Below, one piece after another: positions 30,313-47,832 of a DNA stretch of 64,000 nt. A program made the translations under genes and the position numbers. Each line of letters begins with the position of its first letter. Position 1 is the stretch's first letter. Below the pieces are notes generated by a model that ran no database searches, had not been told where the DNA came from, and worked only from the letters and a program-made list of their open reading frames with translations. This stretch comes from Tepidisphaera sp. Lineage in GTDB: Bacteria > Planctomycetota > Phycisphaerae > Phycisphaerales > UBA1924. Location of the stretch: the NCBI GenBank assembly GCA_050916045.1, contig CP051526.1:544001-608000 (forward strand). Reading direction: 5' to 3'.

Positions 30313-30361
30313 GGTGGTCTCCTGTGGTCGGGGGGGGGGGTGCGTGATGCTCGGCACGCAT

Positions 30362-30389
30362 CATGCGACGGGCGAGCGATGAGGTGCCA
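30362..30389 (-). promoter_or_regulatory. Shared bipartite motif, copy 2
   Basis: Minus strand TGGCAC-N15-TCGCATG, ending 50 nt upstream of ATG 30312. Confidence 0.6.
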
Positions 30390-30415
30390 CGATTGACGGT
30401 GAAATGCGTGAAAGA

Positions 30416-30447
30416 CAGCGGGCCGCCGGTACATCGGCGGCCCGCTG
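30416..30447 (-). terminator. Intrinsic terminator after the 30480 gene
   Basis: CAGCGGGCCGCCG-gtacat-CGGCGGCCCGCTG 13-bp stem; TCTTT follows on the minus strand. Confidence 0.75.
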
Positions 30448-30479
30448 GGAAGCTGCTGAGGGCTTGGGTTGGGGCGAGA

Positions 30480-31910
30480 TCAGGACGAGCAGCCGAACTC
30501 GAAGGCTTCGACGAAGGCGTCGTAGTCGAAGAAGTCGACGAAGCCGTCCACGTTGAAGTCGACGGGGCAGGGGTTCGGGGTGGGGATCACGGGGACGCGT
30601 TCGAGGGCTCCCATGTCGATCGCGGGGACGGTGGCTTGCGAAGCGGGGTCGTCCATGATGCGGGTGTTGCCGTCAAGATCGTTGAGCGTGACGATGGCGG
30701 TCATCGGGCGTCGGGCGGCGGCGTTGCCGCGATCGACGCACGGTGAGTCGGCGGCGAGGCGGAAGTCGTCGCTGACGCCGTAGATGAAGTCGGCGCCTGG
30801 CGCGTTCACGAAGCGAGGGGGCATGTCGATGTTGCCGACGCCCGGGTATCCGCCCTCGATGTTGGAGTGGGTGACGCGGAACTGGGACTCGGGCCCGGCG
30901 CTGAGCTGGCCGTTGTTGTCGTAGATGATGCAGTTGTTGATGTTCACGATGGTCGGGAAGGGGGACTGGTCGGCGGTGGCTTCGATGCCCTTGAGGTTGC
31001 CGACGATGGTGCAGTTCTGGATCGTGGGGTTGACGCGGTTGCCGGTGTACGAACGGGCGTAGATGCCAAGGCCCGGGCGTATGCCGGTGATGAGGCAGTC
31101 CGAGATCGTGGCGGATCCGCCGATGAACACCCCGGCTTCCTCGGCTCCGGTGATGATGCAATCGCGGAGGACCGGGCTGTCGCGGAGGACGACAGTGCGC
31201 GTCACGGTGGTCTGCGGTCGGATGGTGAAGCCTTCGATGACGGTTTCCGGCCCCTGACCGCCGGCGAGCGTGAGGCCGTCCGTGGTGTTGGTGGTCACGA
31301 TCGTGGTGACGCGGGGTCCGCCCGAAGAGCGGAGCACGATGCGCTTGGTGCCGAAGTTGAGCGTGCCGACGTAGGTGCCAGGCGCGACGACGATGGTCTG
31401 GCCGTTGAGTGCGGCGTTGAGTGCGGACTGGATGGTCGGGTACTCGGCGGGGACGCGGATGTCGCCGTCGACCTCGACGATGGCGGGGAGGACCGCCCAA
31501 TCGCCCCGGTCGTTCCAGCGGCCGGTCGAAGGGATCATCGCGCCGAGGTCTTCGAGGCCGTTGCCGTTGTTGGGCTCGCCCGGGGACCAGTTGAACCAGA
31601 CCGCGGGCTCACCGCCGATCCAGTTGTAGAAGTTCTCGATGGCGATGTCGTTGATGCCGATGAAGCACTCGGCGGTGTTGTTGCCGAAAGCGGCGATGTT
31701 GGCCCGGACCCACTCGTTGGTCGTGCTCTCGTGAATCGTCGCCAGTGAGCCGCCGAGCGCCGCGGCGCGGGCGTTGGCGTCGGCCCAGGTGGTGGGAGCG
31801 AGGCGGTAGTAGCGTTTGCCGTTGGCGGGGTTGATGGTCGGGCCGACGACGACCTGAGCGTGAGCTGCGGCGGCGAGGGCGAGGGCGGTCAGGAGGGCGA
31901 ATCTGCGCAT
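30480..31910 (-). CDS. Lectin-array paralogue 5
   Basis: Signal peptide; WSPGEPNN...WND; IRVPAEYPTIQ; tail CPVDFNVDGFVDFFDYDAFVEAFEFGCSS. Confidence 0.88.
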   Translation of the reverse strand: MRRFALLTALALAAAAHAQVVVGPTINPANGKRYYRLAPTTWADANARAAALGGSLATIHESTTNEWVRANIAAFGNNTAECFIGINDIAIENFYNWIGGEPAVWFNWSPGEPNNGNGLEDLGAMIPSTGRWNDRGDWAVLPAIVEVDGDIRVPAEYPTIQSALNAALNGQTIVVAPGTYVGTLNFGTKRIVLRSSGGPRVTTIVTTNTTDGLTLAGGQGPETVIEGFTIRPQTTVTRTVVLRDSPVLRDCIITGAEEAGVFIGGSATISDCLITGIRPGLGIYARSYTGNRVNPTIQNCTIVGNLKGIEATADQSPFPTIVNINNCIIYDNNGQLSAGPESQFRVTHSNIEGGYPGVGNIDMPPRFVNAPGADFIYGVSDDFRLAADSPCVDRGNAAARRPMTAIVTLNDLDGNTRIMDDPASQATVPAIDMGALERVPVIPTPNPCPVDFNVDGFVDFFDYDAFVEAFEFGCSS

Positions 31911-31958
31911 GGTGCGTCCTTTCAGGACTGTTTGGGGGGACGGACGAAATGGGAACGA

Positions 31959-33389
31959 TCAGCAGCCGAGCTCGTACGCTTGCACGAACTCGTCGTAATC
32001 GAAGAAATCAAGGAAGCCGTCGCGGTTGAAGTCGACGGGGCACGTTGGTTCGGGGACCGACGGGAGAGCTTCGAACGCGCCGATGTCGATGCGGGCCTGG
32101 GAAAGCGGATTCACATCGGTGGTGCCGTGAGCGAGGCGAGGGCGGTTTCCGGCATCAAGCTGGGTGCGGACGGTTCCGAAAGCGGCGCGGACTAGGTCGT
32201 TGCCGGCATCGATACAAGCGGAGTCGGGTGCGAGGGTGTAATCCTCCCCGAGCTCGAAATATCCGTCCGGGCCTGGAGCGCCGTTGAACCGGGGCGGGCT
32301 TGAGATGTTGCCGGGGCCGGGCCGGAGGGAGTTCGGAGTGTTGCAGTGGCTGAACTCAACGCGGCCGGAGCCGAGTTGGATGTCGGAGTAGTGACCGAGG
32401 AGGATCGAATTGGAGACTTTGATGACCAGAGGCCGGGCGAGGGACTGGAAGAAGGTGTAGAGCGGAACTCCGGTGGTGATGGTGCAGTTCTGTACCGTGA
32501 TGTTTCCGGGCTTGGGGGTTTGAAGGCCGGCGATGCCGATGTACGTCTCGGTGATGAGGCAGTCCGAGATGATGACGCTTCCGCCCGCGGCGACGCCGTT
32601 GGACGACCGGCCGATCCGGCAGTTCCGCACGACCTGACCGTCGACCGCGATGATTCCGTACTGCGTTCCGAAGTAGGTGGAGGGATGGATCGTGAATCCT
32701 TCGAGGATCGTCTCGGGTCCCTGGCCACCCGCCATCACGATGCCGTAGGCTCCGCCCGTCGTCACGATGGTGGTGGCGGCGGGGCCTGCTTGCGAGCGGA
32801 CGACGAGCTTCTTGTAGCCGAAGTCGAAGTTCCCCACATGGTTTCCCGGCGCGACTTCGATGATCTGTCCATCGATGGCGGCGTTGATCGCGGCTTGGAT
32901 GGTCGGGAATTCCGCGGGGACGCGGATGGGGCCGGTGACCTCGACCACCGCGGGGATGAAGATGCCCGACGTCGACACGTCGTTCCAGGTCCCGTCGGCG
33001 TTCATGCAACCGGCATCCTCGTCACCGCCGAAGTCGTTGGGTTCACCGGGACCCCAGTTCGCGTAGTAGGGCGGGTCGCCGGTGACCCAGCGAAAGTCTC
33101 CTTCCCTGCTTTCGTCGGAGAGGCCGATCCAGCAGGGGAAGGTACTGCCACTCGCGGTGACGACGTTGTGACGGATCCAGGTATTGAGCGCCTCGTCCGT
33201 GATGACGGCAAGCCGTGCGCCCATCGCGGTCGCCGCGGCTCGCGAGGTGGCGAGGTCGGCGCGGCCCAGACGGTGGTAGCGTGTGCCCGTCTCGGGGTGA
33301 ACGATCGGGCCGATCACGGGTTGTGCTTGGGCGAGTAAAGCGGGGATTGCCGTGGCAAGCGCGGTGAAGAGCAGGGTGGAGAACTTCAT
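31959..33389 (-). CDS. Lectin-array paralogue 4
   Basis: MKFSTLL start with GGAGG RBS; CWIGLSD, WGPGEPND...WND; tail CPVDFNRDGFLDFFDYDEFVQAYELGC. Confidence 0.88.
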   Translation of the reverse strand: MKFSTLLFTALATAIPALLAQAQPVIGPIVHPETGTRYHRLGRADLATSRAAATAMGARLAVITDEALNTWIRHNVVTASGSTFPCWIGLSDESREGDFRWVTGDPPYYANWGPGEPNDFGGDEDAGCMNADGTWNDVSTSGIFIPAVVEVTGPIRVPAEFPTIQAAINAAIDGQIIEVAPGNHVGNFDFGYKKLVVRSQAGPAATTIVTTGGAYGIVMAGGQGPETILEGFTIHPSTYFGTQYGIIAVDGQVVRNCRIGRSSNGVAAGGSVIISDCLITETYIGIAGLQTPKPGNITVQNCTITTGVPLYTFFQSLARPLVIKVSNSILLGHYSDIQLGSGRVEFSHCNTPNSLRPGPGNISSPPRFNGAPGPDGYFELGEDYTLAPDSACIDAGNDLVRAAFGTVRTQLDAGNRPRLAHGTTDVNPLSQARIDIGAFEALPSVPEPTCPVDFNRDGFLDFFDYDEFVQAYELGC

Positions 33390-33445
33390 GGGACCTCCGT
33401 GGCGAGGGCGGGGGATGGGAGCGGCATGGGGCGGGAGTGGTGGGC

Positions 33446-34852
33446 TTAGCAACCGGTCTCGTACGCCTGGACGAAGGCGTCGTAGTCGAAGAAGTCCAGG
33501 AACTGGTCGGCGTTGAAGTCGGCGGGGCAGGACGGGCGCGGCTGGTTGGATTCGACGGCTCCGATGTCGATCACCGCACCGGGGCCCACGCCCGTGTCGA
33601 TGGCGGGATCGTCGGTGAAGCGCGTCCCGCCGGCGGCGTCGAGGGGTGTGCCGTAGGCGGCGAAGATCCTGCGGGCGGCGTTGCTTCCTGCGTCGATGCA
33701 GGGCGAGCCCGGCGCCGGGGTGTAGTCGTCATCGGGTCCGTAGATGCCGTCGGGGCCCGGGGCACCGATGAAGAGCGGGTTGGCAGAGATGTTCCCTGCG
33801 CCGGGGGACAGGCCGGGGGTGTTGCTGTGGGTCAAGCGCACGGTGGCGAAGGTGTGAGGAAAGATCGTCGAGTCGAGATTGTCGACGAAGATCGTGTTCG
33901 CGATGTCGACGAGGAACCTCGGCGAGGTCGATCCGCTTTCGGGACGAAGCCCGTTGCGATTGCCCGCGATGGTGCAGTTCTGCACAGCGATCTCGACCGT
34001 CGGGCTCAAGCCGCGGGCGACGATTCCGAAGAAGCACCCGGTCACGATCGTGTCGGAAACGACGCCGCGATTGACGACCGTGATGCCGTTCTGGGCACCG
34101 TGGACGATGCAGCTGCGGACAGTCGGTCCGTCCGTCAGAGAGATGAGGTTCGGGACCTGCTGCGAGCCGGGCAGGACCGTGAACCCCTCGAAGGTCATCC
34201 TTCGCTGCGAGCCGCCGTTCATCAGAACGCCCGGCAAGGTCAGGCGAATCGTCGTCGCTCGCGGTCCGTGCGTCGAGCGGACGACGAGGTTTTTGCTCCG
34301 GAAGTCCACCGATCCCGTGTACTCACCGGGTGCGACCTCGACGGTCTGCCCCTCGAAAGCCGCGTCGATCGCGGCTTGGATGGTCGCAAACTCTCCCGGC
34401 ACCCGGAGCGGCCCATCGCACTGGACCACCGCGCGAATCGAAGCCGCGACAGGAACGTCGTTCCAAAGACCCGTCGTGGTGATCATCGTGGCGTCCTCGT
34501 CGCCGATGTTGTTGGGTTCGCCCGCTCGCCAGTTGGTGAAGACGACGCGATCGCCGTTGACCCAGCGGTACACCCCTTCGGATTCCTCATCGTTGAGCCC
34601 GATGTAGCACGGTTCGGGGTTGCCGCCAGCGGCGACGACGTTGGTCGCGATCCAGCTGTTGAACGAAGCATCATGGATGCTGACAAGCTGCCCGCCCATT
34701 GCGGCGGCGGCGGCTCGGACCTCTGGCCAGGTGCCGGCGGCGATGCGGTAGTACCGAGGGCCGTCGATCTGTCGGACAACAGGGCCGACCTCGATCTGGG
34801 CGGAAGCAAGACAGGCAAAGCCGAGAGATGCGGCAAGGGCGAGGAGTTTCAT
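33446..34852 (-). CDS. Lectin-array paralogue 3
   Basis: Signal peptide; CYIGLND, WRAGEPNN...WND; tail CPADFNADQFLDFFDYDAFVQAYETGC. Confidence 0.88.
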   Translation of the reverse strand: MKLLALAASLGFACLASAQIEVGPVVRQIDGPRYYRIAAGTWPEVRAAAAAMGGQLVSIHDASFNSWIATNVVAAGGNPEPCYIGLNDEESEGVYRWVNGDRVVFTNWRAGEPNNIGDEDATMITTTGLWNDVPVAASIRAVVQCDGPLRVPGEFATIQAAIDAAFEGQTVEVAPGEYTGSVDFRSKNLVVRSTHGPRATTIRLTLPGVLMNGGSQRRMTFEGFTVLPGSQQVPNLISLTDGPTVRSCIVHGAQNGITVVNRGVVSDTIVTGCFFGIVARGLSPTVEIAVQNCTIAGNRNGLRPESGSTSPRFLVDIANTIFVDNLDSTIFPHTFATVRLTHSNTPGLSPGAGNISANPLFIGAPGPDGIYGPDDDYTPAPGSPCIDAGSNAARRIFAAYGTPLDAAGGTRFTDDPAIDTGVGPGAVIDIGAVESNQPRPSCPADFNADQFLDFFDYDAFVQAYETGC

Positions 34853-34885
34853 GGCGTTGCTCCGGTGAAAGGGTGGAAGGAGTGT

Positions 34886-36301
34886 TCAGCAGCCGGTCTC
34901 AAAGGCTTCCACGAAGGCGTCGTAGTCGAAGAAGTCGACGAAGCCGTCGCCGTTGAAGTCGATCGCGCAGACGGGAGCTTGCGGGTTGTGCTCGTAGGCT
35001 CCGAGATCGACGATGCCGGAGACGCCGGCGACGAAGTTGGCCTGTTCGGCGTCGAGGAATCGCTGCTGGCCCGCGGCGTCCAGGGGCAGGTTCACGCTTG
35101 CGGTGGGCCGGCGGGCCTGGACGTGTCCACGGTCGATGCACAGGGAGAGCGGCGAGAGTGAGTAGTCGTCTTCAAGGCCGTAGACGCCGTCGGCTCCCGG
35201 GGCGTTGAGGAACCCTGGAGAAGCGGAGAAGGTGCCGATGCCGGATTCGCGGCTGAACACCGAGTTGCAGTACTCGAGCGTGACTGTTGCGGCGGGGCTT
35301 CGCGAGACGCTCCCGGCCGTGGTGGCGATGATCGAGTTGCGGACGGAGGCGCGGTAGCGGCCCGGGGGGAACGGGTCGGGTGCCTGGATGCCGTGGCCCG
35401 AGCCCGCGATGGTGCAATTCTGGATCATGACGTCCGCGGGGCGGCCCCCAGCGATCACCGAGACCCCGAAGAAGCGGCCGAGGATGAGGCAGTCGGAGAT
35501 GGTCGCGTTGCCGCCCGCGACGATCGCCGTGTCGCCGCCGATGATCCGGCAGTTCCGCACCGTCTGGCCGCCGTTCACGTTCACAAGCTGCCTCGTGCTG
35601 GGCTCGGTCGCCGCGATGGTGAAGCCTTCAAGCACGGTCTCGGGTCCCTGACCGCCCGTCATGACCACACCGAAGAAGATGTCCGTGGAGAGAATCGTGG
35701 TGACTTCGGGCCCCTGCGTCGAGCGAACGACGAGCTTCTTGGAGCCGAAACTGAAGCCGCCCGAGTAGGTGCCAGGGAGCACCTCGATGATCTGACCGTC
35801 GATCGCGGCGTTGACGGCGGCCTGGATTGTCGGATACTCGAGCGGCACCACGATCGGACCCGAGACCTCGATGATCCCAGGGTAGGTGAGGTACGCCGGG
35901 ACGTCGTTCCACACGCCCGAGGCCGGTGACATGACGCCGCCGTCCTCGATGCCGCCGAAGTCGTTGGGTTCGCCAGGTGCCCAGTTCGTGTACGCGAGCG
36001 GATCACCCGACGACCAGACGAAGCTGCCTTCGGTCGCGATGTCGTTGATGCCGATCCAGCACTCGTTCGTGTTGCCGCCCGCCGCCGCGAGGTTGGCCCG
36101 GATCCACTCGTTCTGCTGCTGGCTATGGATGGTGACCAAGGAGCCGCGGAGGTTGGCCGCGATCGTTTCGGCCTGGAACCGCTGGACCCGGTCGGTGCGG
36201 TAGTAGCGTTTGCCGTCCGCGGTGTTCATGACCGGACCGAGGGCGATCTGGCCGAAAGCGAGCGAAGCGGGGATGATGGCGAGAAGGAAAGCGAGCTTCA
36301 T
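34886..36301 (-). CDS. Lectin-array paralogue 2
   Basis: Signal peptide; CWIGIND, WAPGEPND...WND; tail CAIDFNGDGFVDFFDYDAFVEAFETGC. Confidence 0.88.
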   Translation of the reverse strand: MKLAFLLAIIPASLAFGQIALGPVMNTADGKRYYRTDRVQRFQAETIAANLRGSLVTIHSQQQNEWIRANLAAAGGNTNECWIGINDIATEGSFVWSSGDPLAYTNWAPGEPNDFGGIEDGGVMSPASGVWNDVPAYLTYPGIIEVSGPIVVPLEYPTIQAAVNAAIDGQIIEVLPGTYSGGFSFGSKKLVVRSTQGPEVTTILSTDIFFGVVMTGGQGPETVLEGFTIAATEPSTRQLVNVNGGQTVRNCRIIGGDTAIVAGGNATISDCLILGRFFGVSVIAGGRPADVMIQNCTIAGSGHGIQAPDPFPPGRYRASVRNSIIATTAGSVSRSPAATVTLEYCNSVFSRESGIGTFSASPGFLNAPGADGVYGLEDDYSLSPLSLCIDRGHVQARRPTASVNLPLDAAGQQRFLDAEQANFVAGVSGIVDLGAYEHNPQAPVCAIDFNGDGFVDFFDYDAFVEAFETGC

Positions 36302-36331
36302 GGCGTGGCTCCGTCCGGTGATCGATGGTGG

Positions 36332-37777
36332 TTACTCGGTGCAGCCAAGCTCGAACGCTTCAACAAACGCGTCGTAGTCGAAGAAGTCGACGAAGGTGTC
36401 GCCGTTGAAGTCGACGGGGCAGGGGCGCTGGAGCGAGACATACTCGAAAGCCCCGCAGTCGGCGATCGGTCCCGGACCCGAGCCGGTGTTGGCCACCGTG
36501 GGATCCTCCGAGAATCTCGGCAACCCATACCCATCGACCTGGTTTCCGATCGTGAGCATCGGCGCACGCAGCGAGTTGTTCGAAGCGTCGATGCACGGGG
36601 AGCCCGCCAGCGGGGTGTAGTCGTCATTGAGCTCGTAGGTTCCGTTGTCGCCGGGAGCGCTCGAGAACTGCGGGTCCGCGAAGAGGTTCGGCCCGCTCGC
36701 AAGCGGACCCTCCCCGAAGATGTTGCTGAACGCGAAGATGTTCCCGCTCCCCCCTCTGTAGAGCGGTATGCCGTTGCTCGCGGTGACGGAGTTGATTAGT
36801 CGGAGGGTGACCGGGACCGGGTGGAAGAAGTTGTCCGCCGCGACGCCGACCGTGTTGCCCACGATGGTGCAGTTCTGGATCGTCGCGTTCGTGCTGAATC
36901 CTCCAGAAGTCCCGTAGACGCCCACGAAGCTCCCGACAATCAGAGAGTCGCTGAGAACGGTCTTGTCGCGGAGAACGACGGCGATGGCTCCCGGGTTCTG
37001 GAACCGGCAGTTGCGGATCACCTGGCCGTTGAGAGCGCTGAGCAGTTCCTGCGTCGCGCCCGCAACATGCGGAACAACGGTGAAACCTTCCAGGATCGTC
37101 TCGGGCCCCTGACCGCCCGTCATCAGAACGCCGGTCGCGCTCGCGGTCACCCTGATCGTCGTCGACATGGGGCCGGACTCGGACCGGATGTGGAGTTTCT
37201 TGGAGCCGAAGTCGACGTTCCCGACATAGGAGCCGAAAGCGACGAGGATCGTCTGGCCGTCCACTGCGGCGTCGATCGCGGCTTGAATCGTCCGGAACTC
37301 GGACGGAACGCGGATCGGCCCGGTGAATTCGACGACGGCGGGCCGGGGAATTCCGTCGGGAATGTCGTTCCACGTTCCGTCCGACGCCGACATGATGACC
37401 AGGTCTTCCGCGCCGCCCGCGTTGTTCGGCTCGCCAGCAAGCCAGTTCAAGTAGGTCGGCGCGTCGCCTCTGCTCCATCGGAACAAGCCTTCCTGCACGC
37501 GGTCGTTGATCCCGATGAAGCAGGGGACGGTGTTGCCGCCCGCAGCCACCACGTTCTGCCTGATCCACTCGTTGGTCGCGGCGTCATGGATCGTCGCCAG
37601 GTTGCCGCCGACGCTCCGGGCGGAGGAGTCCGCCGATTCCCAACTCCGCGGCGAGTACCGGTAATAGCGCGTACCAGTCTCGGGGTGGGTGATCGGCCCG
37701 ATCATCGGCTGAGCAATGCCCACGGAGCAGACGGCCAGGGCGATCGTGGGCGCAGCGATAGCACGGAGACGGAGCAT
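36332..37777 (-). CDS. Lectin-array paralogue 1
   Basis: MLRLRAIA start with AAAGGAAG RBS; WLAGEPNN...WND; tail CPVDFNGDTFVDFFDYDAFVEAFELGCTE. Confidence 0.88.
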   Translation of the reverse strand: MLRLRAIAAPTIALAVCSVGIAQPMIGPITHPETGTRYYRYSPRSWESADSSARSVGGNLATIHDAATNEWIRQNVVAAGGNTVPCFIGINDRVQEGLFRWSRGDAPTYLNWLAGEPNNAGGAEDLVIMSASDGTWNDIPDGIPRPAVVEFTGPIRVPSEFRTIQAAIDAAVDGQTILVAFGSYVGNVDFGSKKLHIRSESGPMSTTIRVTASATGVLMTGGQGPETILEGFTVVPHVAGATQELLSALNGQVIRNCRFQNPGAIAVVLRDKTVLSDSLIVGSFVGVYGTSGGFSTNATIQNCTIVGNTVGVAADNFFHPVPVTLRLINSVTASNGIPLYRGGSGNIFAFSNIFGEGPLASGPNLFADPQFSSAPGDNGTYELNDDYTPLAGSPCIDASNNSLRAPMLTIGNQVDGYGLPRFSEDPTVANTGSGPGPIADCGAFEYVSLQRPCPVDFNGDTFVDFFDYDAFVEAFELGCTE

Positions 37778-37985: not shown

Positions 37986-38074
37986 GGAACAAGTCAGTAA
38001 CTGTCTCAGGAACGATACCGGCGTGTATCAGGCTCCCGAGGGCTCGGGTTTTCAGGCTCGGCGTTGAGGTGAAC

Positions 38075-39139
38075 ATGGCATCGGTACGCGGGATCGCAGC
38101 ACAGGTCGGGGTTTCAGTCGCGACTGTTTCACGGGCGCTGAACAACCATCCGCACGTGGATGCGGAGACCCGGCGGAAGGTCGTCGCGGCCGCCGGTCGG
38201 GCGGGCTATACCCCCGGGAACGCGGGGCGGCGGGTGTCGACGGCGATCGGCTTGGTCTATCCGGGCGAGGTGGTGCGGGCGGATTACGGCGGCTTCGACG
38301 CTTCGCTTCTGGCGGGCGTGCTGCGAGGTCTGAACGAGCACAAGTTGGACATCCAGATCGTTTCGGTCGGTCGCGACAAGGGCGCCGACGAGACGTTTGC
38401 CGAGTTCTTCGTCCGCAAGGGCCTCCGCGGGGTCATCCTGCGAAACTTCGAGGAAACCCGTTCGATGACGCGAGCGATCGCGGCGGAGGGGTTCCCGGCG
38501 GTGGTCGTTGCGGACCGTTTCGATGACGAATCTGTCAATTTCGTCTGGTGCGACTCGCGTTCGGACAGCCGTCGCGCGGTCCAGCACCTGATCGACCTCG
38601 GCCACCGTCGGATCGCTCTGGGCGTCCACCGCGTCCCGGATACGGACCACCATGAGCGTCGCGCCGGGTATCGCGAGGCGCTCAAGGAAGCCGGGATCGC
38701 CGAGGATCCGTCGATCATGGTCGACATCTGCGGCGATATGGAGGGTGGAGCCGCGTACATCTCGCGTCTTCTGAGCTTGCCTGTGCCGCCGACGGCGGTG
38801 TACTTCTCGGACCCTCTCGCGACCGTCGGCGCCCTGCGTCGCTGCTTGGAACTCGGCCTGAGCGTGCCGCGGGACCTCTCGATCATCGGGTTTGACGACA
38901 GCGACATCCGCAAGCACACCTTTCCGCAGTATTCCGCGGTGGTTCAGGACGCGGAAATGGTCGGTTTTGAAGCGGCTCGCTGGCTTTCGCGGCGTCTGGC
39001 TCATCCAGAGGATCCGCAGTGGCGAAACCTGCGGATGGAGCGGTCGACGTTTCTCGAAATCAACAAGACGACGGGCCGTCCGCCCGTGGAACCGGTCCGG
39101 GTGCTTCCGGACGGGACGCGTGTGGCGGTCAAGGTGTAA
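38075..39139 (+). CDS. LacI-family transcriptional regulator
   Basis: HTH IAAQVGVSVATVSRALN; HLIDLGHRRIA, ERRAGY, VPRDLSIIGFDD; GAGGTG RBS. Confidence 0.95.
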   Translation: MASVRGIAAQVGVSVATVSRALNNHPHVDAETRRKVVAAAGRAGYTPGNAGRRVSTAIGLVYPGEVVRADYGGFDASLLAGVLRGLNEHKLDIQIVSVGRDKGADETFAEFFVRKGLRGVILRNFEETRSMTRAIAAEGFPAVVVADRFDDESVNFVWCDSRSDSRRAVQHLIDLGHRRIALGVHRVPDTDHHERRAGYREALKEAGIAEDPSIMVDICGDMEGGAAYISRLLSLPVPPTAVYFSDPLATVGALRRCLELGLSVPRDLSIIGFDDSDIRKHTFPQYSAVVQDAEMVGFEAARWLSRRLAHPEDPQWRNLRMERSTFLEINKTTGRPPVEPVRVLPDGTRVAVKV

Positions 39140-39220
39140 GGGAAGTGGTCTTGGGTCGTGATTCGGAACAGTGAATGTGCCTCGGGTGTGTTTCCCTGCG
39201 GCGAAGAATCTGGAGTGCAC

Positions 39221-40144
39221 ATGGTTCTTGCAAAGTCGAGGTCTCGTTGGACGGGCTTCACGCTGATTGAACTTCTGGTGGTCATCGCGATCATCGCGCT
39301 GCTCATCGGCCTGCTTCTCCCCGCGCTGGGCAAAGCCCGCGATGCGGGTCGTCAGGCGGTGTGCCTTTCGAACGTGAAGCAGATGGGCATGGCGGCGACT
39401 CTGTACGCCGCGGACAACAAGGAACGCGTGTGGATCGCGAAGGTCGACTTCGTCAACGGCCAGCAGGTCTATCGCCCTGATCCCGGCCGCATGTCCGGCC
39501 CGACGGGCAACTACACGGCGTGGGCGCGGCTTCCCGATCCGGCGAACCCCGGCCGCGCGCTGCCGGGTCTCGCGTACCAGTATCTCGATCTTGCGGGCAA
39601 AGCTGGCGAGTGTCCGGCGAACAAGCGTCGCTCGGCGGACGGTCAGGATCGGAGCACCACGAGCCTGACGACCGAGATCGACTTTGACTACACGTTCATG
39701 AGCGTGATGGCCGGGGCCCGCCTGGGCACCGATACCAAGATGGCGTATCTGAAGGATCCGGCGCCGTTCTTCAGCGGGCTGCCGCCCCTGGGAATCACCC
39801 ACGACACCTCGCAGGATCGTCTTCAGATCCTGCAGTCGCCGGTGCTCTTCATCGAGGAGAACACCTGGCTCTTCAATTCGGACGTGCCCGACGGGCTCTT
39901 TGCTTCGTCGGACCAGATCTCGACGCGTCACTCCCAGACGGGCAATCTCGCTTATCTGGACGGCGGCGCGGGCGCGATCAAGCCCCCGCGGGCGGGCGAG
40001 GAGAAAACCGCGGAAGCGGGCGATCTGTACGCGAAGCACTTCTACGCGTGGACGAACCGCGAATGGCTCCGCGTGGAGGGGCCGAGCGAGGGCAATGGCA
40101 GGCCGTTCGGGTGGTTCAACAACCCCACTCGCGGGCCGTTCTGA
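39221..40144 (+). CDS. Prepilin-type N-terminal cleavage/methylation protein with H-X9-DG motif (DUF1559-like)
   Basis: [46 protein letters not shown]-terminal [12 protein letters not shown]. Confidence 0.92.
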
Positions 40145-40234
40145 TCGAGAGGGGTGGGCCAAATGTCGGGTGAAGTCGCGCGGCCTGATGTCCGGCCGTG
40201 CGTGAATTCGGAGTGAATGAAGGAGAATCATCAG

Positions 40235-41515
40235 ATGAAGAGGATCTTTGGAATCGCCCTTGCGGCGACGGGCCTTTTGGCCTCGACGGCGAGCGCTCAG
40301 AACGCGCTCTTGAACGGCGGGTTTGAAGAGAAGTGCACCCCGGCGGCGAGCTGGACGGCCTTCGGCAACGTCACGAACATCAACTTCTACACGACCTCCG
40401 GGGCGCGTTCGATCAAGATGTTCGGGCCCTTCAACGCCCCGCTCGGCTACAGCGGCATCTTCCAGGATCGCCCCGCGTCCCCCGGCCAGGTGTACACGGG
40501 CTCGGCGTTCGTCTTCAGCCCCTGCTGGGACCGCCTGCGGCCCGACGGCACGCGCGCCCTCGTCGATGTGAGCTTCATCGACGCCAACGGCAACGTGATC
40601 AACGACCCGCAGACGAACATCTCGCCGCGCGTCACCGAGTCGACCGCTCCGGGCGGCAACGCCGGGTGTGACCTCGGCTTCTCCGAGCCTCTGGCGGTTC
40701 AGCTGACGACGACCCCCGCGGTCGCGCCGGCCGGCACCGTGGCGGTCCGCATCCAGCTCCTCGTCGAGCAGGAAAACTACATCGGCGGCGCGGCGTGGTG
40801 GGATGACGCTTCGCTCGAGCTTTCGACCAACCCGGGCGTCAACGTGCTCGACAACTCGAGCTTTGAGCAGGCTCCGGCCAACTGCTTCGGCAGCAACTTC
40901 GTGGGCTGGGTCAACTTCGGCAACGGTTCGGACACCCCGGGTGTCAACGCCCGCACGGGCAACGAAGCCGCGAAGCTCTTCGGCGGGTTCAACGGCAACC
41001 CCGCGTTCAGCGGCTGGTTCCAGGACGTCGCGGCGACCCCGGGCAGCTCTTGGATCGCTCGCGGCTGGGGCCGTTCCTGGGTGAACGACTCCCTGCAGCC
41101 GGGCAACAACGTCTTCCTCCAGCTTGAGTTCTACGACGAGTTCGGCAACAACCTGATCGGCGGCGTCGGCCAGAGCGAATCGATCCCGACTCCCGGCGAT
41201 GACACCTACCGGTTCTACGAGACCGGCCTCGCGGTCGCTCCCCCCGATACGGCGAAGGTCCGCCTCGTCATCATCCAGGTCCAGAGCAACTTCGCGGGTG
41301 GCGCGACCTGGTGGGACGACATGGAACTGACCAACGGTTGCGCCGCGGACTTCAACGGCGACAACTTCCTGGACTTCTTCGATTACGATGATTACGTCAA
41401 CTGCTTCGAGACCGGCAACTGCCCCCCGGGCAAGACCGCCGACTTCAACGGTGACGCCTTCGTCGACTTCTTTGACTACGACGACTACGTCGAAGCTTTC
41501 GAGACCGGCTGCTGA
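40235..41515 (+). CDS. Secreted protein with two CBM4/9-like modules and two-repeat dockerin-like tail
   Basis: Signal peptide; two repeats L(L/D)NxxFE...W..FGN...K(M/L)FG.FN...APxxT..VR...GGAxWWDD; AAGGAG RBS; CBM assignment is by resemblance. Confidence 0.8.
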   Translation: MKRIFGIALAATGLLASTASAQNALLNGGFEEKCTPAASWTAFGNVTNINFYTTSGARSIKMFGPFNAPLGYSGIFQDRPASPGQVYTGSAFVFSPCWDRLRPDGTRALVDVSFIDANGNVINDPQTNISPRVTESTAPGGNAGCDLGFSEPLAVQLTTTPAVAPAGTVAVRIQLLVEQENYIGGAAWWDDASLELSTNPGVNVLDNSSFEQAPANCFGSNFVGWVNFGNGSDTPGVNARTGNEAAKLFGGFNGNPAFSGWFQDVAATPGSSWIARGWGRSWVNDSLQPGNNVFLQLEFYDEFGNNLIGGVGQSESIPTPGDDTYRFYETGLAVAPPDTAKVRLVIIQVQSNFAGGATWWDDMELTNGCAADFNGDNFLDFFDYDDYVNCFETGNCPPGKTADFNGDAFVDFFDYDDYVEAFETGC

Positions 41516-41554
41516 ACGCTTGAGCGGCACGCAGGCCGCTTGATGTCAACAACG

Positions 41555-41587
41555 GCGCCCCGGGGATTCGCGTCCCCGGGGCGCTTT
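41555..41587 (+). terminator. Intrinsic terminator/stabilising hairpin inside the glucan locus
   Basis: GCGCCCCGGGGA-ttcgcg-TCCCCGGGGCGC-TTT. Confidence 0.7.
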
Positions 41588-41631
41588 CGCGAAAGTCGCC
41601 GGGCCAAAAGCCCGGTTCAATGTGGAGCCGC

Positions 41632-43116
41632 ATGGATCGTCGGCAGCGTCAATCAGGAGCCTGGAGCGAAGCGCGTGGGACTTCGCGGGTTCGCTCGCGG
41701 GGTTCGGCGCTTGGTTCGCGGACCTTGGCGCTCATGGCCCTCCTCGCCTGCTCCACCCTCCTGATCGCGGCGCTGCGGGCGGGCGAAGCTTCGAGCGGCC
41801 GCACATTCTGGCTTTTCGCCGGCGCCCACCACCGCATGTACGTCCCGATCATGGAGTCATGGAACGCAAAGGCGGGTTCCGACGCTTCGATCGATCGGGT
41901 CGAGATGAAGCTCCTGAGCTACAACGCTCTTGAACGGCGGATGCTCTCTTCCTTCTACACCGGGACACCCTCGGCCGATCTGATCGAGGTCGAGCGGAAG
42001 ATCGCGGGCAACGCCTTCAAGGGTCCGCTTGAACGCGTGGGTTTCGTCGATCTGACCGATCGCCTCAAGCGGGAAGGCCTGCTCAACGAGATCAACGCTC
42101 CGAGCTTCGGCCCCTGGACCAGCCGCGGGCGGATCTTCGGGCTGCCCCACGACGTCCACCCCGTCATGCTCGGATACCGGGCCGACCTCGTCGAAGCCGC
42201 GGGCATCGATGTCTCGCAGATCGAGACGTGGGACGACTTCATCCGCCTGCTCAAGCCGCTCCAGAAAGACCTCGACGGTGACGGCACGCTGGACCGGTTC
42301 CTCATCAACATGTGGCCCAACAACGCCGACCACCTCGAGGTGCTCATCCTGCAAGCCTGCGGAGCGTTCTTCGATGATCAGGACCGCTGCGTCATCGCGA
42401 GCGACATCAACGCCGAGGTGCTGGCGACCGTTGCGTGGTGGTGCGTCGGGCCCGACCCGGTCGCGGCGGACGCGCCCAACTTCTCGCTGGCCGGCAATCA
42501 GAAGAAAGCCGACGGCTACGTCGTGTCGAGCCTCTTCCCCGATTGGATGTGCGACATCTGGCGGAACGAGATTCCGTCGCTTTCGGGCAAGCTCAAGATG
42601 ATGCCGATCCCGGCGTGGCGCAAGGGCGGCCTCCGCACCAGCGTCTGGGGCGGCACGATGATCGGCATTCCCCGGGCCGCGGTCGACGGACCCACCGGCG
42701 AGCAGGACTTTGAGCGACTCTGGGCTTTCGCCAAGCACCTGTACCTTTCCAAAGAGCTCGCCGGCGCCCTCTGGCGGAGCGGCAGCATCATCACCCCCGT
42801 CCGGGCCCACTGGTCCGATACGGTGTACGACGAGCCGCAAGCGTACTTCAGCGGGCAGGCGACCGGTCGCATGTACATCGAGCAGGCTCCCTTCATCCCC
42901 GCCCGCTCGAGCAGCCCGTACAACACGATCGCGATGCAGCGCACCCAGACCGCCCTCGAGGACCTCGCCAAGGAAGTCGCTCGCGACAAGACCATGTCCC
43001 GCGAAGCGGTACAGGCCCGTGCCAAGGAACTGCTCCAGATCGCGCAGCGGTACGTCGAGGGGCAGATCGAGCGGAACGTGTTCCTGTCCGAATCCGTCGC
43101 GGAGGCAAGCCGATGA
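41632..43116 (+). CDS. Sugar ABC transporter substrate-binding protein (start uncertain)
   Basis: GRIFGLPHDVHPVMLGYRADL, IETWDDF, SVWGGTMIGIP; overlaps the permease start (ATGA). Confidence 0.88.
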   Translation: MDRRQRQSGAWSEARGTSRVRSRGSALGSRTLALMALLACSTLLIAALRAGEASSGRTFWLFAGAHHRMYVPIMESWNAKAGSDASIDRVEMKLLSYNALERRMLSSFYTGTPSADLIEVERKIAGNAFKGPLERVGFVDLTDRLKREGLLNEINAPSFGPWTSRGRIFGLPHDVHPVMLGYRADLVEAAGIDVSQIETWDDFIRLLKPLQKDLDGDGTLDRFLINMWPNNADHLEVLILQACGAFFDDQDRCVIASDINAEVLATVAWWCVGPDPVAADAPNFSLAGNQKKADGYVVSSLFPDWMCDIWRNEIPSLSGKLKMMPIPAWRKGGLRTSVWGGTMIGIPRAAVDGPTGEQDFERLWAFAKHLYLSKELAGALWRSGSIITPVRAHWSDTVYDEPQAYFSGQATGRMYIEQAPFIPARSSSPYNTIAMQRTQTALEDLAKEVARDKTMSREAVQARAKELLQIAQRYVEGQIERNVFLSESVAEASR

Positions 43117-44051
43117 GCGCCCGCGCCGTGGAAACCCCGATGCTCGCGCCCAAGTGGCAGCCGCGATGGGCGCCTTGGCTCTTCCTTTCGCCCTTTCTCC
43201 TCATCTTCGTGGTGTTCACCGCGTATCCGCTGGTGCGGTCGCTGGTGCTCTCCCTTGAGCAGACGTGGGGCCCGGGCGAGTCGCGGTTCGTCGGCGCGGC
43301 GAACTACAAGTGGCTCCTGACCGACCGGCTGTTCTACAAAGCCCTCTCGAACACGGTGCTCTACACCCTGGGTTCGCTTTTCATCCAGCTCCCGCTGGCC
43401 TTGTTCCTGGCACTGGTGCTTGAGACGCCCGGCCTCCGCGGCAAAGCCATCTACCGCGTGATCCTCTTCTCGCCGTCCCTGGTGGGTGTCGTCTTCGCGG
43501 CGATGATGTTCGGGCTGATCCTGGAAGCACGCTCGGGCCTGCTCAACCGCGTTCTTCACGCGGGGACGTCGTTCCTTCCCGAAGCATGGCGGTGGAATCT
43601 CGACTTCGCCTGGCTCACCGAGTACACGATCGCCGCGATGGTCGTCGCGTCGCTCTGGATGTTCGTCGGGTTCAACATGGTGTACTTCTCGGCCGCGCTG
43701 CAGAGCGTCCGGGCGGACCTCCGCGAAGCGGCGACGCTTGACGGGGCGGGCCGCTGGGCGCGGTTCCGGCACGTGGTGTGGCCGGCGATCCGACCGGTTT
43801 CGAGCTTCGTCGTGCTGCTCTCGGTGGTCGGGTCGCTCCAGCTTTTCGAGCTTCCGTACATGATTCTGGATGCGGCGGGCCGGCCGAGCGATTCGGGCCT
43901 GACGCTCATCATGTACCTGTACCGCAATGGGTTTGAATCGGGCGATCTCGGGTACGCGAGCGCGATCGGCTGGGTGCTGGGGATCGTGCTGATCGCGTGC
44001 TCCGCGTTCGAGCGTGTGCTTTCGCGTGGTGAAGCGGAGGGCACGGCGTGA
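43113..44051 (+). CDS. Carbohydrate ABC transporter permease
   Basis: WLFLSPFL, FVGAANY, EAATLDGA EAA loop, GYASAIG. Confidence 0.93.
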   Translation: MSARAVETPMLAPKWQPRWAPWLFLSPFLLIFVVFTAYPLVRSLVLSLEQTWGPGESRFVGAANYKWLLTDRLFYKALSNTVLYTLGSLFIQLPLALFLALVLETPGLRGKAIYRVILFSPSLVGVVFAAMMFGLILEARSGLLNRVLHAGTSFLPEAWRWNLDFAWLTEYTIAAMVVASLWMFVGFNMVYFSAALQSVRADLREAATLDGAGRWARFRHVVWPAIRPVSSFVVLLSVVGSLQLFELPYMILDAAGRPSDSGLTLIMYLYRNGFESGDLGYASAIGWVLGIVLIACSAFERVLSRGEAEGTA

Positions 44052-44950
44052 ACAACAAGCACACCAAGTCGGGCCGCTTGCGTGCGACGCTGATCCTCTG
44101 GATCGCGTGCTTTGTCACGCTTCTGCCGCTGGTCTGGCTGGTGATCTCGAGCTTCAAGACCAACGAGTCGTTCCTGACCTCGCTTTTGGTCCCCAAGTCG
44201 CCGATCGTCGCCGAGGGAGTGGATCCGAGCACGATTCCCCCAGAGGACCTGCGGTGGAAGTACGACCTCACGCTGCTCACCTTCAAGCACTATCGCGAGC
44301 TTTTCGGACAGCTCGATTTCGTGACCCCGCTGCTGAATTCCGTGCTGCTCTCGAGCGCGACAGCGGTGCTGGGCACGCTTTTCGCCGCGATGGGCGGGTA
44401 CGCCCTCGCCCGGTTCGAGTTCGCGGGTCGCAAGCTCGTCACGGCGCTGGTGATCGGTGCGGTGCTGATCCCCGCGCCGCTGCTGCTGGCTCCCGGGTAT
44501 GAGCTGCTCTTCAAGATCGGCCTGCTCAACACGTTCACGGGCGTCATCCTGCCCGCGGCCGCGCCGGCGTTCGGGGTCTTCCTGTTCCGGCAGTCGATCA
44601 TGTCGAGCGTGCCCCGTGAGCTTCTCGAAGCCGCCCGCTTGGACGGGTGTGGCGAGGTCCGGATGTTCTTCGCGGTGGTCATGCCGCTGGTCAAGCCGAT
44701 GATCGGCACGTTCGTGATGCTGACGTTCCTGGGGGCGTGGAACAACTTCGTGACCCCGCAGGTGATTCTGCAAAGCGAGAGTAAATTCCCGCTTTCGGTC
44801 GCGGTCGCTCAGCTCCGCGGGACGTACTACCAGAACTATGGTTTGCAGATGGCGGGAACGGTCGTGTCGATCGTCCCCGTGCTGGTGCTGTTCCTCGCCC
44901 TGCAGCGGTCGTTCGTCAGCGGGCTGACGGCGGGAGCGGTCAAGTCGTAA
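44048..44950 (+). CDS. Carbohydrate ABC transporter permease
   Basis: SSFKT, GYALARFEFAGR, PRELLEAARLDG, FVSGLTAGAVK. Confidence 0.93.
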   Translation: MNNKHTKSGRLRATLILWIACFVTLLPLVWLVISSFKTNESFLTSLLVPKSPIVAEGVDPSTIPPEDLRWKYDLTLLTFKHYRELFGQLDFVTPLLNSVLLSSATAVLGTLFAAMGGYALARFEFAGRKLVTALVIGAVLIPAPLLLAPGYELLFKIGLLNTFTGVILPAAAPAFGVFLFRQSIMSSVPRELLEAARLDGCGEVRMFFAVVMPLVKPMIGTFVMLTFLGAWNNFVTPQVILQSESKFPLSVAVAQLRGTYYQNYGLQMAGTVVSIVPVLVLFLALQRSFVSGLTAGAVKS

Positions 44951-44992
44951 AGACGGTGTGAAGCGGGGCCGCAAAGGCCACCGAGGAGGTCG

Positions 44993-46417
44993 ATGATGTT
45001 CCGTGACGGATTCATTTGGGGTGCGGCGAGCAGCTCGTACCAGATCGAGGGTGGAGCCACGGCGCACGGCCGCGGCCCCAGCGTTTGGGACGCGTTCTGC
45101 GCCGAACAGGGCAAGGTCTACCGCAACCAGTCCGGTGCGGTCGCCTGCGACCACTACCACCGCGTCTCCGAGGACGTCGCGATCATGAAGCGGATGGGCC
45201 TGCACGCCTACCGGTTCTCGACCTCTTGGTCGCGGATCATGCCCACCGGCCGCGGTGCCGTCAACGGCGCGGGCTTGGCGTTCTACGACCGCTTGGTCGA
45301 CGAGCTGCTCGCGGCCAAGATCGAACCCTGGCTCACGCTTTTCCACTGGGACTATCCCCAGGCTCTTCAGCTCGAGGGTGGCTGGATGAACCCCGACTCC
45401 TCGAAGTGGTTCGCCGACTACACCGATGTCGTCGTGCGCCGCCTCGGCGACCGCGTCCGGCACTGGATGACGATCAATGAGCCGCAGGTCTACATCGGTC
45501 TTGGCCACCGCGACGGCACGCACGCCCCGGGCATGAAGCTCTCGACCGCCCAGTGGCTCCAGTGTGGCCACAACACGCTGCTGGCCCACGGCCGCGGAGC
45601 CCAGGTCATCCGTGCTTCGGCCGCCCGCACGCCGACAGTCGGTTGGGCGCTTGTCAACCGCGTCGAGTATCCCGCGACGGACTCGCCGGCCGACATCGAA
45701 GCCGCCCGCCGCTCGACGCTCTCCGTCACCGTGAAGGACACCTGGAGCAACACCTGGTGGGCCGACCCCGCCCTCCGCGGCCACTACCCGGAGGACGGCC
45801 TCAAGCTCTTCGGAGCCGATGCTCCCAAGACCGCTCCCGGCGACATGGAGACCATCAACCAGCCGCTGGACTTCTACGGCGTCAACATCTATTCGGGCGA
45901 AGCCGTGAAAGCCGGACCCGACGGCAACCCGGTCAACGTCCCGTGGTCTGATGGCAACCCCATCACCACCTTCCGCTGGAACATCGCGCCCAAGTCGCTG
46001 CAGTGGGGGCCCCGCTTCCTCTACGAGCGGTACAAGACGCCCATCATCGTCACCGAGAATGGAATGGCCAACGCCGACTGGGTCCACGCCGACGGCCAGG
46101 TCCATGATCCCCAGCGCATCGACTTCACCCGCGGGTACCTGCAGGAACTCGCAAAGGCCGCTGCTGCGGGCACCGACATCCGCGGGTACTTCCACTGGTC
46201 CATCCTCGACAACTTCGAGTGGGCCGAGGGATACCGCGAACGCTTCGGCCTCGTCCATGTCGACTTTGAAACCGGCAAACGCACGCCCAAGGACTCCGCC
46301 GCGTGGTACCGCGACGTCATCGCGACCAACGGCCGCAACCTCGGCGTTTCCGACGCATCTGCCAAGCCCGGCGCCGTTCTCGAACCTGGTCCCCTTCGCG
46401 CGGAGGTCGTCCGATGA
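44993..46417 (+). CDS. GH1 beta-glucosidase (no signal peptide)
   Basis: FIWGAASSSYQIEG, ACDHYHR, YRFSTSWSRI, TINEP (acid/base), IVTENG (nucleophile), WSILDNFEWAEGY. Confidence 0.96.
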   Translation: MMFRDGFIWGAASSSYQIEGGATAHGRGPSVWDAFCAEQGKVYRNQSGAVACDHYHRVSEDVAIMKRMGLHAYRFSTSWSRIMPTGRGAVNGAGLAFYDRLVDELLAAKIEPWLTLFHWDYPQALQLEGGWMNPDSSKWFADYTDVVVRRLGDRVRHWMTINEPQVYIGLGHRDGTHAPGMKLSTAQWLQCGHNTLLAHGRGAQVIRASAARTPTVGWALVNRVEYPATDSPADIEAARRSTLSVTVKDTWSNTWWADPALRGHYPEDGLKLFGADAPKTAPGDMETINQPLDFYGVNIYSGEAVKAGPDGNPVNVPWSDGNPITTFRWNIAPKSLQWGPRFLYERYKTPIIVTENGMANADWVHADGQVHDPQRIDFTRGYLQELAKAAAAGTDIRGYFHWSILDNFEWAEGYRERFGLVHVDFETGKRTPKDSAAWYRDVIATNGRNLGVSDASAKPGAVLEPGPLRAEVVR

Positions 46418-47832
46418 GCCGGTCCAATCCGAATCCGTTCCTGCTCGCCGCGTCCTGCGCCGCGACCATGGCTGCTTCCGCGCTCGCCCAGCCCGAGCCC
46501 GGCCCGTGGCGCATGACGTTTCAGGATGAGTTCTCGACCAACATCATCGACGCTTCCAATTGGCGGCTGGTCAATCAAGCCTGGCCCTACAACGACGAGC
46601 GCCAGTACTACAGGCCATCCGCCGTCACGCAGTCGGGCGGCAAGATGATCATCACCGCCACCAACCAGCCCTTCGGCGGCCGCTTGTACACCTCCGGCCG
46701 CGTCGAAAGCGGCGGGAACCGCTTCAACCAGCAGTTCGGCCGGTTTGAGTGGCGAGCCAAGCTCCCCCGCACGCAGGGCATCTGGCCCGCGCTCTGGCTC
46801 CTGCCCGAGAACCAGTGGCCCCCCGAGATCGACGTGATGGAGCTCCTCGGCCACGAGCCCAACAAGGTCTACTTCACCCACCATTACGGCACCGCCCAAG
46901 CTCCGCGCAATCAGAGCAGCAGCTTCGTCGGGCCCGATTTCTCCGCAGACTTCCACAACTTCGCCTGCGAGTGGTGGCCGGACCGCATCGAGTGGTTCGT
47001 CGACGGCACGCTCCGCGCGACGCACCGCAACGCGATCCCGCGCATGCCGATGTACCTCATCATGAACGTCGCGGTCGGCGGGTTCTGGCCCGGATACCCC
47101 GACGGCACCACCACCTTCCCGCAGCGGATGGAGATGGACTGGGTCCGCGTCTGGGAGCGGTACCTGCTCAACGAGAGCTTCGAGGACCCCGGCCCTGGCG
47201 CGGGCGTCCCGTTCTATGGCTGGACGAAGTGGGGCAACGTCTTCACCGATAGCGATGACGGCCGCACGCCTCTGACCAGCCGCGGCATCAAGATGTTCGG
47301 CAACTTCAACGGCCAGCCGAACGCTTCCGGTCTCTGGCAGGCATCCACCGACGTCGCTCCGGGTCAGGTCTGGCGGGTTCGTTCGTGGTGGAAGCACCGC
47401 GCGGACGACGCGATCGCCGGCGGCAACTCGGCTTCGATCTCGATCGAGTGGCGCAACGCCGCCGACGAGTTCATTTCCGAGACGCTGACGGTCGCTCTGA
47501 CCTCCGCTTCGCCGACGAACACGTACCGCGAGGTGATCGCCGAGGGGCTCGCCCCGCCCGGCACGGCGTCCGCGCGGGTCGTCGCGAAGTTCTTCCAGCC
47601 AGCCCAATCCGCCGGCGCCGCGTACGTCGATGACATCTCCCTCGAGTTCGTCGGATGCGGAGCGGATTTCAACGGCGACGGGTTCGTCGACTTCTTCGAC
47701 TACGACGACTACGTCCAGTGCTACGAGACCGGTGCATGCCCGGCGGGCGAATCGGCGGACGTCAACGGCGATGCGTTCGTCGATTTCTTCGACTACGACG
47801 CCTTCGTCGCGATGTTTGAAGCCGGCTGCTAA
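46414..47832 (+). CDS. Secreted GH16 endo-beta-1,3-glucanase (laminarinase-like) + CBM-like module + two-repeat dockerin-like tail
   Basis: Signal peptide; FQDEF, YTSGRV, GIWPALWLLP, WPPEIDVME catalytic motif, NVAVGG, DWVRVW; ATG 46414 overlaps the GH1 stop. Confidence 0.92.
   Translation: MSRSNPNPFLLAASCAATMAASALAQPEPGPWRMTFQDEFSTNIIDASNWRLVNQAWPYNDERQYYRPSAVTQSGGKMIITATNQPFGGRLYTSGRVESGGNRFNQQFGRFEWRAKLPRTQGIWPALWLLPENQWPPEIDVMELLGHEPNKVYFTHHYGTAQAPRNQSSSFVGPDFSADFHNFACEWWPDRIEWFVDGTLRATHRNAIPRMPMYLIMNVAVGGFWPGYPDGTTTFPQRMEMDWVRVWERYLLNESFEDPGPGAGVPFYGWTKWGNVFTDSDDGRTPLTSRGIKMFGNFNGQPNASGLWQASTDVAPGQVWRVRSWWKHRADDAIAGGNSASISIEWRNAADEFISETLTVALTSASPTNTYREVIAEGLAPPGTASARVVAKFFQPAQSAGAAYVDDISLEFVGCGADFNGDGFVDFFDYDDYVQCYETGACPAGESADVNGDAFVDFFDYDAFVAMFEAGC

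Follow-up and report, generated by a model that had tools for sequence, protein, structure and literature searches.

How polysaccharides cross the outer membrane of planctomycetes, and what the many prepilin-like proteins of the DUF1559/H-X9-DG type do in these bacteria, are two questions on which the locus described here bears. Dextran binds to pili-like fibres of two planctomycetes, for which uptake into the periplasm has been shown (PMC5394234), and the resulting fishing rod hypothesis is summarised in a review that calls the uptake uncharacterised (PMC12078418). The expansion of the DUF1559/H-X9-DG family and the signal-peptide genes in its neighbourhood have been described (PMC8567305; PMC10632474), with DUF1559 itself being listed as of unknown function (PMC10632474). 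The locus occupies positions 38075..47832 of a 64,000-nt stretch (the window, to which the coordinates of all its parts refer) from a Tepidisphaera sp. genome of 4.08 Mb, assembled as one contig (C1) and 95.6% complete. Its eight genes encode, in order, a LacI-family repressor, an H-X9-DG prepilin, a secreted protein with two domains of carbohydrate-binding module (CBM) fold, the binding protein and two permeases of an ATP-binding cassette (ABC) sugar importer, and two glycoside hydrolases (GH), of families GH1 and GH16. The locus thereby ties one H-X9-DG paralogue to a named substrate, to a regulator with a candidate operator and to a binder that can be folded in silico, and gives concrete candidates for the capture of polysaccharide without the usual outer-membrane importers.

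Carbohydrate-active enzymes (CAZymes) are known to be clustered in Phycisphaerae, though by the account of the study concerned, the main text of which does not contain the word pilin, no planctomycete CAZyme cluster has been functionally studied (PMC11131199). In a verrucomicrobium, a pseudopilin from an alginate-induced operon amounts to 0.513% of protein on alginate and to 0 on mannose and sucrose, the neighbouring lyase reaching 0.111% (PMC13274419, Table S3, one replicate). Literature searches, whose coverage excluded most subscription papers and the supplements of PMC8567305 and PMC11131199, returned no paper with the layout of regulator, binder, prepilin and enzyme. New here are three points: pilin head, binder and anchor have been exchanged at a single orthologous locus, one prepilin head (head B) is bound to that locus, and a candidate operator has been noted.

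The eight genes do form a beta-1,3-glucan locus, and they clearly exemplify a variant of the polysaccharide utilisation locus (PUL) that is TonB-free and contains a pilin. The proposed mechanism, held with a probability of roughly 45%, is that of a TonB-free glycan locus in which a cassette-specific pilin, put together in trans, helps to capture and import the glucan. The genomic link between the prepilin and the locus is strong. Related loci were anchored on the ABC binding protein and gathered in three sets, the third overlapping the earlier ones, and as kin genomes are not independent, formal p-values overstate the case. The first set held 20 loci, of which two cut by contig ends were dropped and one of those counted is a near-identical sibling; a prepilin is present in 15 of the 18. 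A second set of 20 freshly fetched loci has one in 17, against 3.7 expected from the per-genome density of prepilins. From the third set of 80 loci the 47 flanked on both sides by 7 kb or more were counted, and these contain a prepilin in 43 cases, LacI in 42, GH16 in 40, GH1 in 38, the non-catalytic CBM gene in 33 and an ATPase in 6. Every one of the 33 loci with the CBM gene also has the prepilin, and gene order and strand differ widely among the related loci.

The same association recurs at unrelated regulators. In two complete genomes of the sister family a prepilin lies at most 4 kb from 12/16 and 11/17 LacI genes, whereas 20,000 shifts of more than 20 kb gave a mean of about 2 and maxima of 7 and 8, the usual order being LacI, PEP-CTERM protein, prepilin and enzymes. 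Among 23 LacI-prepilin loci sampled through a scan of 52 chosen genes, 15 have clear carbohydrate enzymes or esterases (GH1, 2, 10, 16, 30, 66, 99, 113 and 130, amylase, PF10091, lyase, sulfatase and sialate esterase), two have BNR-repeat proteins alone and six have none. At the amylase locus (L129) the PEP-CTERM-tailed neighbour of the prepilin carries starch-binding X25 domains. In the host genome, two of the four LacI genes stand in prepilin loci. The first-pass annotation of the window had treated the prepilin and the CBM protein as true members of the locus and had proposed neighbourhood statistics of H-X9-DG genes with LacI and GH genes; the linkage comes out above chance and, with the retention of the prepilin in relatives, supports that membership.

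What is retained, however, is not the whole prepilin. The prepilin heads at related loci form three main groups, besides some singles, with no joins between them by BLAST, and the profiles of head A (that of the window) and head B can be aligned only around the H-X9-DG motif, over 23 columns. Head B adjoins the binding protein in 11 of 11 genomes having that protein (56 genomes of the family were sampled), and its six other copies in the family are all in LacI loci too, giving 17/17; three of these six are accompanied by GH16 and CBM genes but lack this ABC binding protein. The remaining three (L155, L156, L158) have a different ABC system and an FAD oxidoreductase, with a phosphodiester glycosidase in two of them. 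Head A is found in 45/201 genomes. A quick tree of the binding protein, in which no clade was tested, nests the head-A loci among head-B loci, and a FastTree of A heads resolves the locus copies into two main groups and one stray copy. Because of these two patterns head A was probably recruited once or twice, and the trees suggest that head B is the older occupant of the locus.

The binder and its anchor vary as well. The tail of the CBM gene is dockerin-like in some related loci and of PEP-CTERM type in others, and five of the ten prepilin loci without the CBM family have, next to or near the prepilin, a member of an unnamed tailed family of 260–270 aa. These members (L171:7910-8689, L172:7876-8694, L180:8025-8816, L188:5544-6350 and L192:7915-8694) gave no Pfam domain except the tail, and their Atlas matches stay below 0.9. 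Judged on such comparisons, the conserved elements are the pilin helix, the H-X9-DG motif and a slot for a tail-sorted binder, the pilin head being exchangeable. A strictly substrate-specific, co-evolved pair of pilin and CBM, as first envisaged, has thereby become doubtful, for the head was replaced while the glucan enzymes stayed, and homologues of head A are mostly found outside sugar loci.

All eight genes lie on the plus strand, as had been claimed and as the open reading frames and the Pfam and NCBIfam families bear out. Four-base stop/start overlaps number three (binding protein/permease, permease/permease and GH1/GH16), so that the several overlaps reported at first are present but none of them involves the prepilin or CBM gene, around which the gaps are 81, 72 and 104 bases. 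The assignment to beta-1,3-glucan, made from the pairing of GH16 with GH1, is upheld by the family evidence. The GH16 protein (46414..47832; PF00722) is predicted to be an endo-beta-1,3-glucanase; its catalytic motif EIDVME, of the pattern E-x-D-x-x-E, is at residue 138, and its best solved relatives are the laminarinases 4dfs and 3azx (E ~1e-43). That it cuts laminarin-type glucan is well grounded in these likenesses. The GH1 beta-glucosidase (44993..46417) scores 533.9 with TIGR03356 (cut-off 478.5), has both catalytic motifs (NEP and ENG) and no hydrophobic signal segment, and is predicted to be cytoplasmic.

The secreted non-catalytic protein of 432 aa (40217..41515) gave no Pfam match. 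Its structure model is a confident tandem beta-sandwich (pLDDT, the predicted local distance difference test, of 94) followed by a dockerin-like tail ending in Gly-Cys, and folds like CBM16, CBM61, CBM4-2 and CBM22. The scores are Z 16.5 for CBM16 2zey (root-mean-square deviation 2.8, 139 residues aligned), 15.4 for CBM61 and 15.2 for CBM4-2, with phage tailspike domains scoring equally high. One copy of the same CBM-fold domain follows the catalytic domain of the GH16 protein, again with a dockerin-like tail behind it, and among 56 homologues of the domain that were scanned (of 150 listed) GH16 is present on 18 and is the sole catalytic family. Since the domain adjoins GH16 and no other catalytic family, the 432-aa protein is likely to bind beta-glucan and would serve as a surface glucan binder.

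Against the NCBIfam model dockerin_GC (NF041540) the tails of the CBM and GH16 proteins score 16.7 and 16.8, under the cut-off of 29; that of the CBM protein aligns over the full length of the model, and a related tail in the host genome passes with 30.9. By the gene predictor and tail pattern used here, 193 of 3283 genes of the host genome are dockerin-tailed. About nine paralogous tailed proteins stand in tandem at 25753-37777 on the minus strand of the window, transcribed away from lacI, the one member scanned having C-type lectin and beta-helix domains. This array also adjoins the locus in the relative G006 (L026) and was not seen at the other loci of the first set.

The prepilin (39221..40144) has a class III signal G/FTLIE, with GFTLIE at residue 12 (Gly at -1, Phe at +1 and Glu at +5) and a long hydrophobic helix thereafter. 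It passes the N_methyl model PF07963 with 21.8 bits (cut-off 21.2) and TIGR02532 with 22.5 (cut-off 16.3). The motif H-x9-DG is matched by pattern at residue 237, its His being invariant across 46 aligned relatives. The protein is termed DUF1559-like. PF07596 stays below its cut-off (17.6 against 23.3 bits, residues 38-66 only), TIGR04294 is absent from the NCBIfam matches listed, and by the Atlas the head falls close to a cluster of which 12% have PF07596. The structure model has a mean pLDDT of 55 and is confident for the N-terminal helix only (residues 3-53). A Foldseek search gave no match at E<=0.001, the helix alone resembling PilA4, and at this quality of model a sugar pocket in the head could not be judged.

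The inner-membrane half of the locus consists of a CUT1 sugar-binding protein (SBP_bac_1; 41620..43116; PF01547) and two permeases with BPD_transp_1 domains and EAA motifs, of MalF/UgpA type (43113..44051) and MalG/UgpE type (44048..44950). The eight genes include no ATPase, outer-membrane transporter or susC/susD pair by Pfam and NCBIfam, in line with the first reading. The missing ATPase had also been taken as unusual and proves ordinary. CUT1 operons comprising LacI, the binding protein, two permeases and GH1 share an ATPase of the MsmK/MsiK/MsmX kind. A stand-alone MsmK-type gene with an OB/TOBE domain is present at C1:77794-78918, and the ATPases carried by nine related loci each have this gene as their best match. 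It would supply the transporter from elsewhere in the genome.

That the locus has neither SusCD nor TonB components is true, but the lack is genome-wide and not a feature of the locus. Searches with PF00593 and PF07715 gave no TonB receptor in the host genome, with controls matched, so that no such receptor was found elsewhere to account for uptake. One of five relatives has a TonB receptor, in single copy. Filament and secretion machinery is plentiful, with six secretins, ten PilB/GspE-type ATPases and four PilT over cut-off, as well as one prepilin peptidase and an exosortase. Since secretins, PilB/GspE, PilT and the peptidase are all encoded, a retractile filament could be built in trans. 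One of the secretins, of 3904 aa with 37 Secretin_N repeats (C1 ~2296103-2307814; L152:1104-12815), is possibly a very long channel across an enlarged periplasm. An H-X9-DG prepilin lies two genes from the sole prepilin peptidase (C1:1360497-1365007).

A palindrome, TGWAACWGTTWCA, turns up with at most one mismatch in 23 of the 36 related loci that were scanned, frequently upstream of lacI. In the window there is a degenerate copy with two mismatches (37996..38008, without strand), just upstream of the repressor gene (38075..39139; PF00356 and PF13377), and 17 places in the host genome score higher; it is a candidate LacI operator. As most top matches of the genome scan are inside genes, the regulon cannot be drawn from it. 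The best match is in or before a peptidase S51 gene. A better copy than that of the window precedes a single-CBM dockerin-tailed gene (C1:462888-463753; L143:3889-4751), which is possibly a remote member of the regulon, and an operator-like site at C1:79325, roughly 400 bases upstream of msmK, the stand-alone ATPase gene, may be due to chance.

Strong hairpins in the gap that separates the CBM gene from the ABC genes (41519..41604, plus strand; z = -4.4, with none of 200 shuffles folding as well) may act as a stabiliser or weak terminator. A promoter scan gave one sigma-70 site against 0.9 expected, which is of no use for placing a promoter. Palindrome and hairpins would fit a single transcript under repression whose front part is more stable. 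Public RNA data were covered as small shares of five runs, of which four, all contigs, were placed against the locus. In three libraries of two studies, near-identical short contigs cover the prepilin head and the CBM gene in part, while the ABC genes have no cover and GH1 one piece; such contigs cannot show transcription, its level or co-transcription, and the pattern is at most a weak hint, consistent with the hairpins that follow the CBM gene.

Prepilins are also found beside other nutrient genes of the host genome. A second LacI locus (C1:3832312-3843349; L056:4316-15347) contains a PF10091 glucanase, a PEP-CTERM protein, GH94, a prepilin, a small membrane protein and two tailed proteins, its substrate probably being beta-1,2-glucan. 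At C1:3385336-3388174 (L054:5337-8172) a His-rich DUF2946-like gene (E 0.002, under cut-off) is followed by a prepilin, a dockerin-tailed protein and a similar-looking PEP-CTERM protein. DUF2946-like genes usually precede TonB receptors, and this group is a candidate for a metal-uptake version of the cassette. In two further places a prepilin is paired with a tailed protein, one of 830 aa and weakly PstS-like (L052:5265-9021) and one beside phytase and phosphodiesterase genes, both weak matches (L055:825-13689); these pairs are possible phosphate-scavenging cassettes.

In the favoured reading, LacI would repress a beta-1,3-glucan utilisation operon from which the tailed GH16 cuts laminarin-type glucan, while the ABC binding protein and permeases, powered by the shared MsmK from elsewhere, carry oligosaccharides across the inner membrane for the cytoplasmic GH1 to release glucose. 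The prepilin would be cleaved by the prepilin peptidase of the genome and join, as a subunit specific to this cassette, a retractile type IV filament whose machinery is encoded elsewhere. Filament and CBM binder may then catch the glucan and pull it to a secretin, or through it into the periplasm, so filling the role of SusC/SusD in Bacteroidota. Capture and import is favoured because the partners of the prepilins are binders, such pairs occur where nutrients are taken up, a private pilin is not needed by most tailed proteins, and the searches gave no TonB receptor.

Several points weigh against this reading. A surface GH16 yields short oligomers that porins could pass without a pilus. The part given to the pilin is deduced from genomic context, and export would fit part of the data as well. 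Four of the 47 related loci have no prepilin, and in one of these four LacI, GH1 and GH16 are all intact; this CBM family is missing from ten of the 43 prepilin loci. Only two of the 31 host-genome prepilins are in LacI sugar loci, and at the 29 other best head-A loci, viewed with flanks of 1.5 kb, no LacI adjoins and one weak CBM match was found. A conserved glucan pocket is disfavoured because the non-alignable heads A and B serve one GH16/GH1 locus. Finally, the verrucomicrobium with the co-induced pseudopilin possesses TonB systems, and the authors of that study assign the pseudopilin to type II export (PMC13274419).

The best-surviving alternative, itself unlikely, is that the prepilin is an export or display adaptor, a cognate pseudopilin of type II secretion by which the co-transcribed tailed proteins (CBM and GH16) are picked out to reach the surface through a secretin, with sugar then entering by porins. 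Directly behind nine of the 31 host-genome prepilins lies a co-oriented dockerin-tailed gene (background 2.6%, p 6e-8), mostly outside sugar loci, and the six secretins and ten PilB/GspE-type ATPases would provide the apparatus. It has likewise been noted that signal-peptide genes often flank such genes (PMC8567305), and type II export of lyases has been suggested (PMC13274419). A private pilin is not generally needed, however, as 184 of the 193 dockerin-tailed genes, proteases and GH53 included, have no prepilin directly upstream. The partners that do follow prepilins have no catalytic domains (a catalytic Pfam over cut-off in 0/9, compared with 6/12 other tailed proteins scanned, in a small and non-random sample), and at the locus the CBM family was retained when the head was exchanged.

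Rather improbable is a role in adhesion or sensing, in which pilin and binder keep the cell attached to glucan particles or report that these are present, hydrolysis takes place outside and oligomers enter via porins, with no polymer being pulled in. Co-regulation and synteny fit this equally, an exchangeable head is easier to reconcile with it, and type IV pili of Fimbriiglobus enhance adhesion to chitin, as cited in PMC11131199. Yet prepilin/binder pairs also stand by genes for apparently soluble nutrients (the DUF2946-like metal, PstS-like and phytase/phosphodiesterase genes, all weak matches), and the PF00593 and PF07715 searches leave the genome without another recognised high-affinity outer-membrane importer. 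That the prepilin is a mere passenger, one of some 31 paralogues that landed in the operon and was inherited without a role in glucan use, is very improbable, for although prepilins are abundant (31 in the host genome by pattern, 21-80 per genome across 35 genomes, with 12.6% of random 19.5-kb stretches of the host genome holding one) and the four loci without one would suit it, the prepilin has been kept despite reordering and replacement by unrelated heads, head B tracks LacI loci in all 17 family copies and the same linkage is seen at many unrelated LacI loci.

Capture and import by a trans-assembled pilin can be extended into a broader proposal, which is speculative and held only tentatively. 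In bacteria of the Planctomycetota-Verrucomicrobiota-Chlamydiota (PVC) group with few or no TonB receptors, the dozens of H-X9-DG prepilins might serve one shared retractile type IV filament and secretin as plug-in subunits, each of them specific to a nutrient, paired with a tail-sorted binder and controlled by the regulator of that nutrient. This would amount to a general TonB-independent outer-membrane import for glycans, and perhaps for metals and phosphate, with prepilin and binder as the functional equivalent of SusC/SusD.

Among known systems, the fishing rod model shares the idea of pilin-like fibres that bind polysaccharide and bring it into the periplasm (PMC5394234; PMC12078418). That model, as there presented, is founded on microscopy with dextran in Planctomycetia and assigns no gene, whereas here genes are proposed, by context alone, in Phycisphaerae. 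With the planctomycete paralogues that combine N_methyl and SBP_bac_10 (DUF1559, H-X9-DG), the locus prepilin shares the class III signal, the dozens of copies, the signal-peptide neighbours and the unknown function (PMC8567305; PMC10632474). It differs in its DUF1559 score, which is below cut-off, and in the link to LacI and CAZymes and the exchange of heads, neither of which is reported in the passages on the family in those two papers. The alginate operon of Verruconatronum alginivorum (pgaptmp_000046-60; PMC13274419) likewise includes one of 67 pseudopilin paralogues, next to a secreted hypothetical protein, and this paralogue is co-induced with the operon. The operon belongs to another phylum, acts on alginate, uses a sodium symporter and has TonB systems alongside, and the likeness is drawn on the pseudopilin label.

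The whole inner-membrane half is shared with CUT1 sugar ABC operons, the ATPase in trans included. Unlike those operons, the locus is that of a diderm and is joined to a prepilin and tail-sorted surface proteins. The PUL of Bacteroidota, with SusC/SusD, surface glycan-binding proteins and a GH16 laminarinase, offers the closest functional parallel, as both unite a sugar-responsive regulator, a surface endo-glucanase, a non-catalytic surface binder and an exo-glucosidase in one operon. SusC/SusD are absent from the present locus, in a genome in which no TonB receptor was found, and the locus has instead a CUT1 ABC importer, a prepilin, and sorting by C-terminal tails rather than as N-terminal lipoproteins. 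If the link proposed here is true, a prepilin together with a tailed binder could serve in these phyla as a marker of glycan loci, just as susCD does in Bacteroidota.

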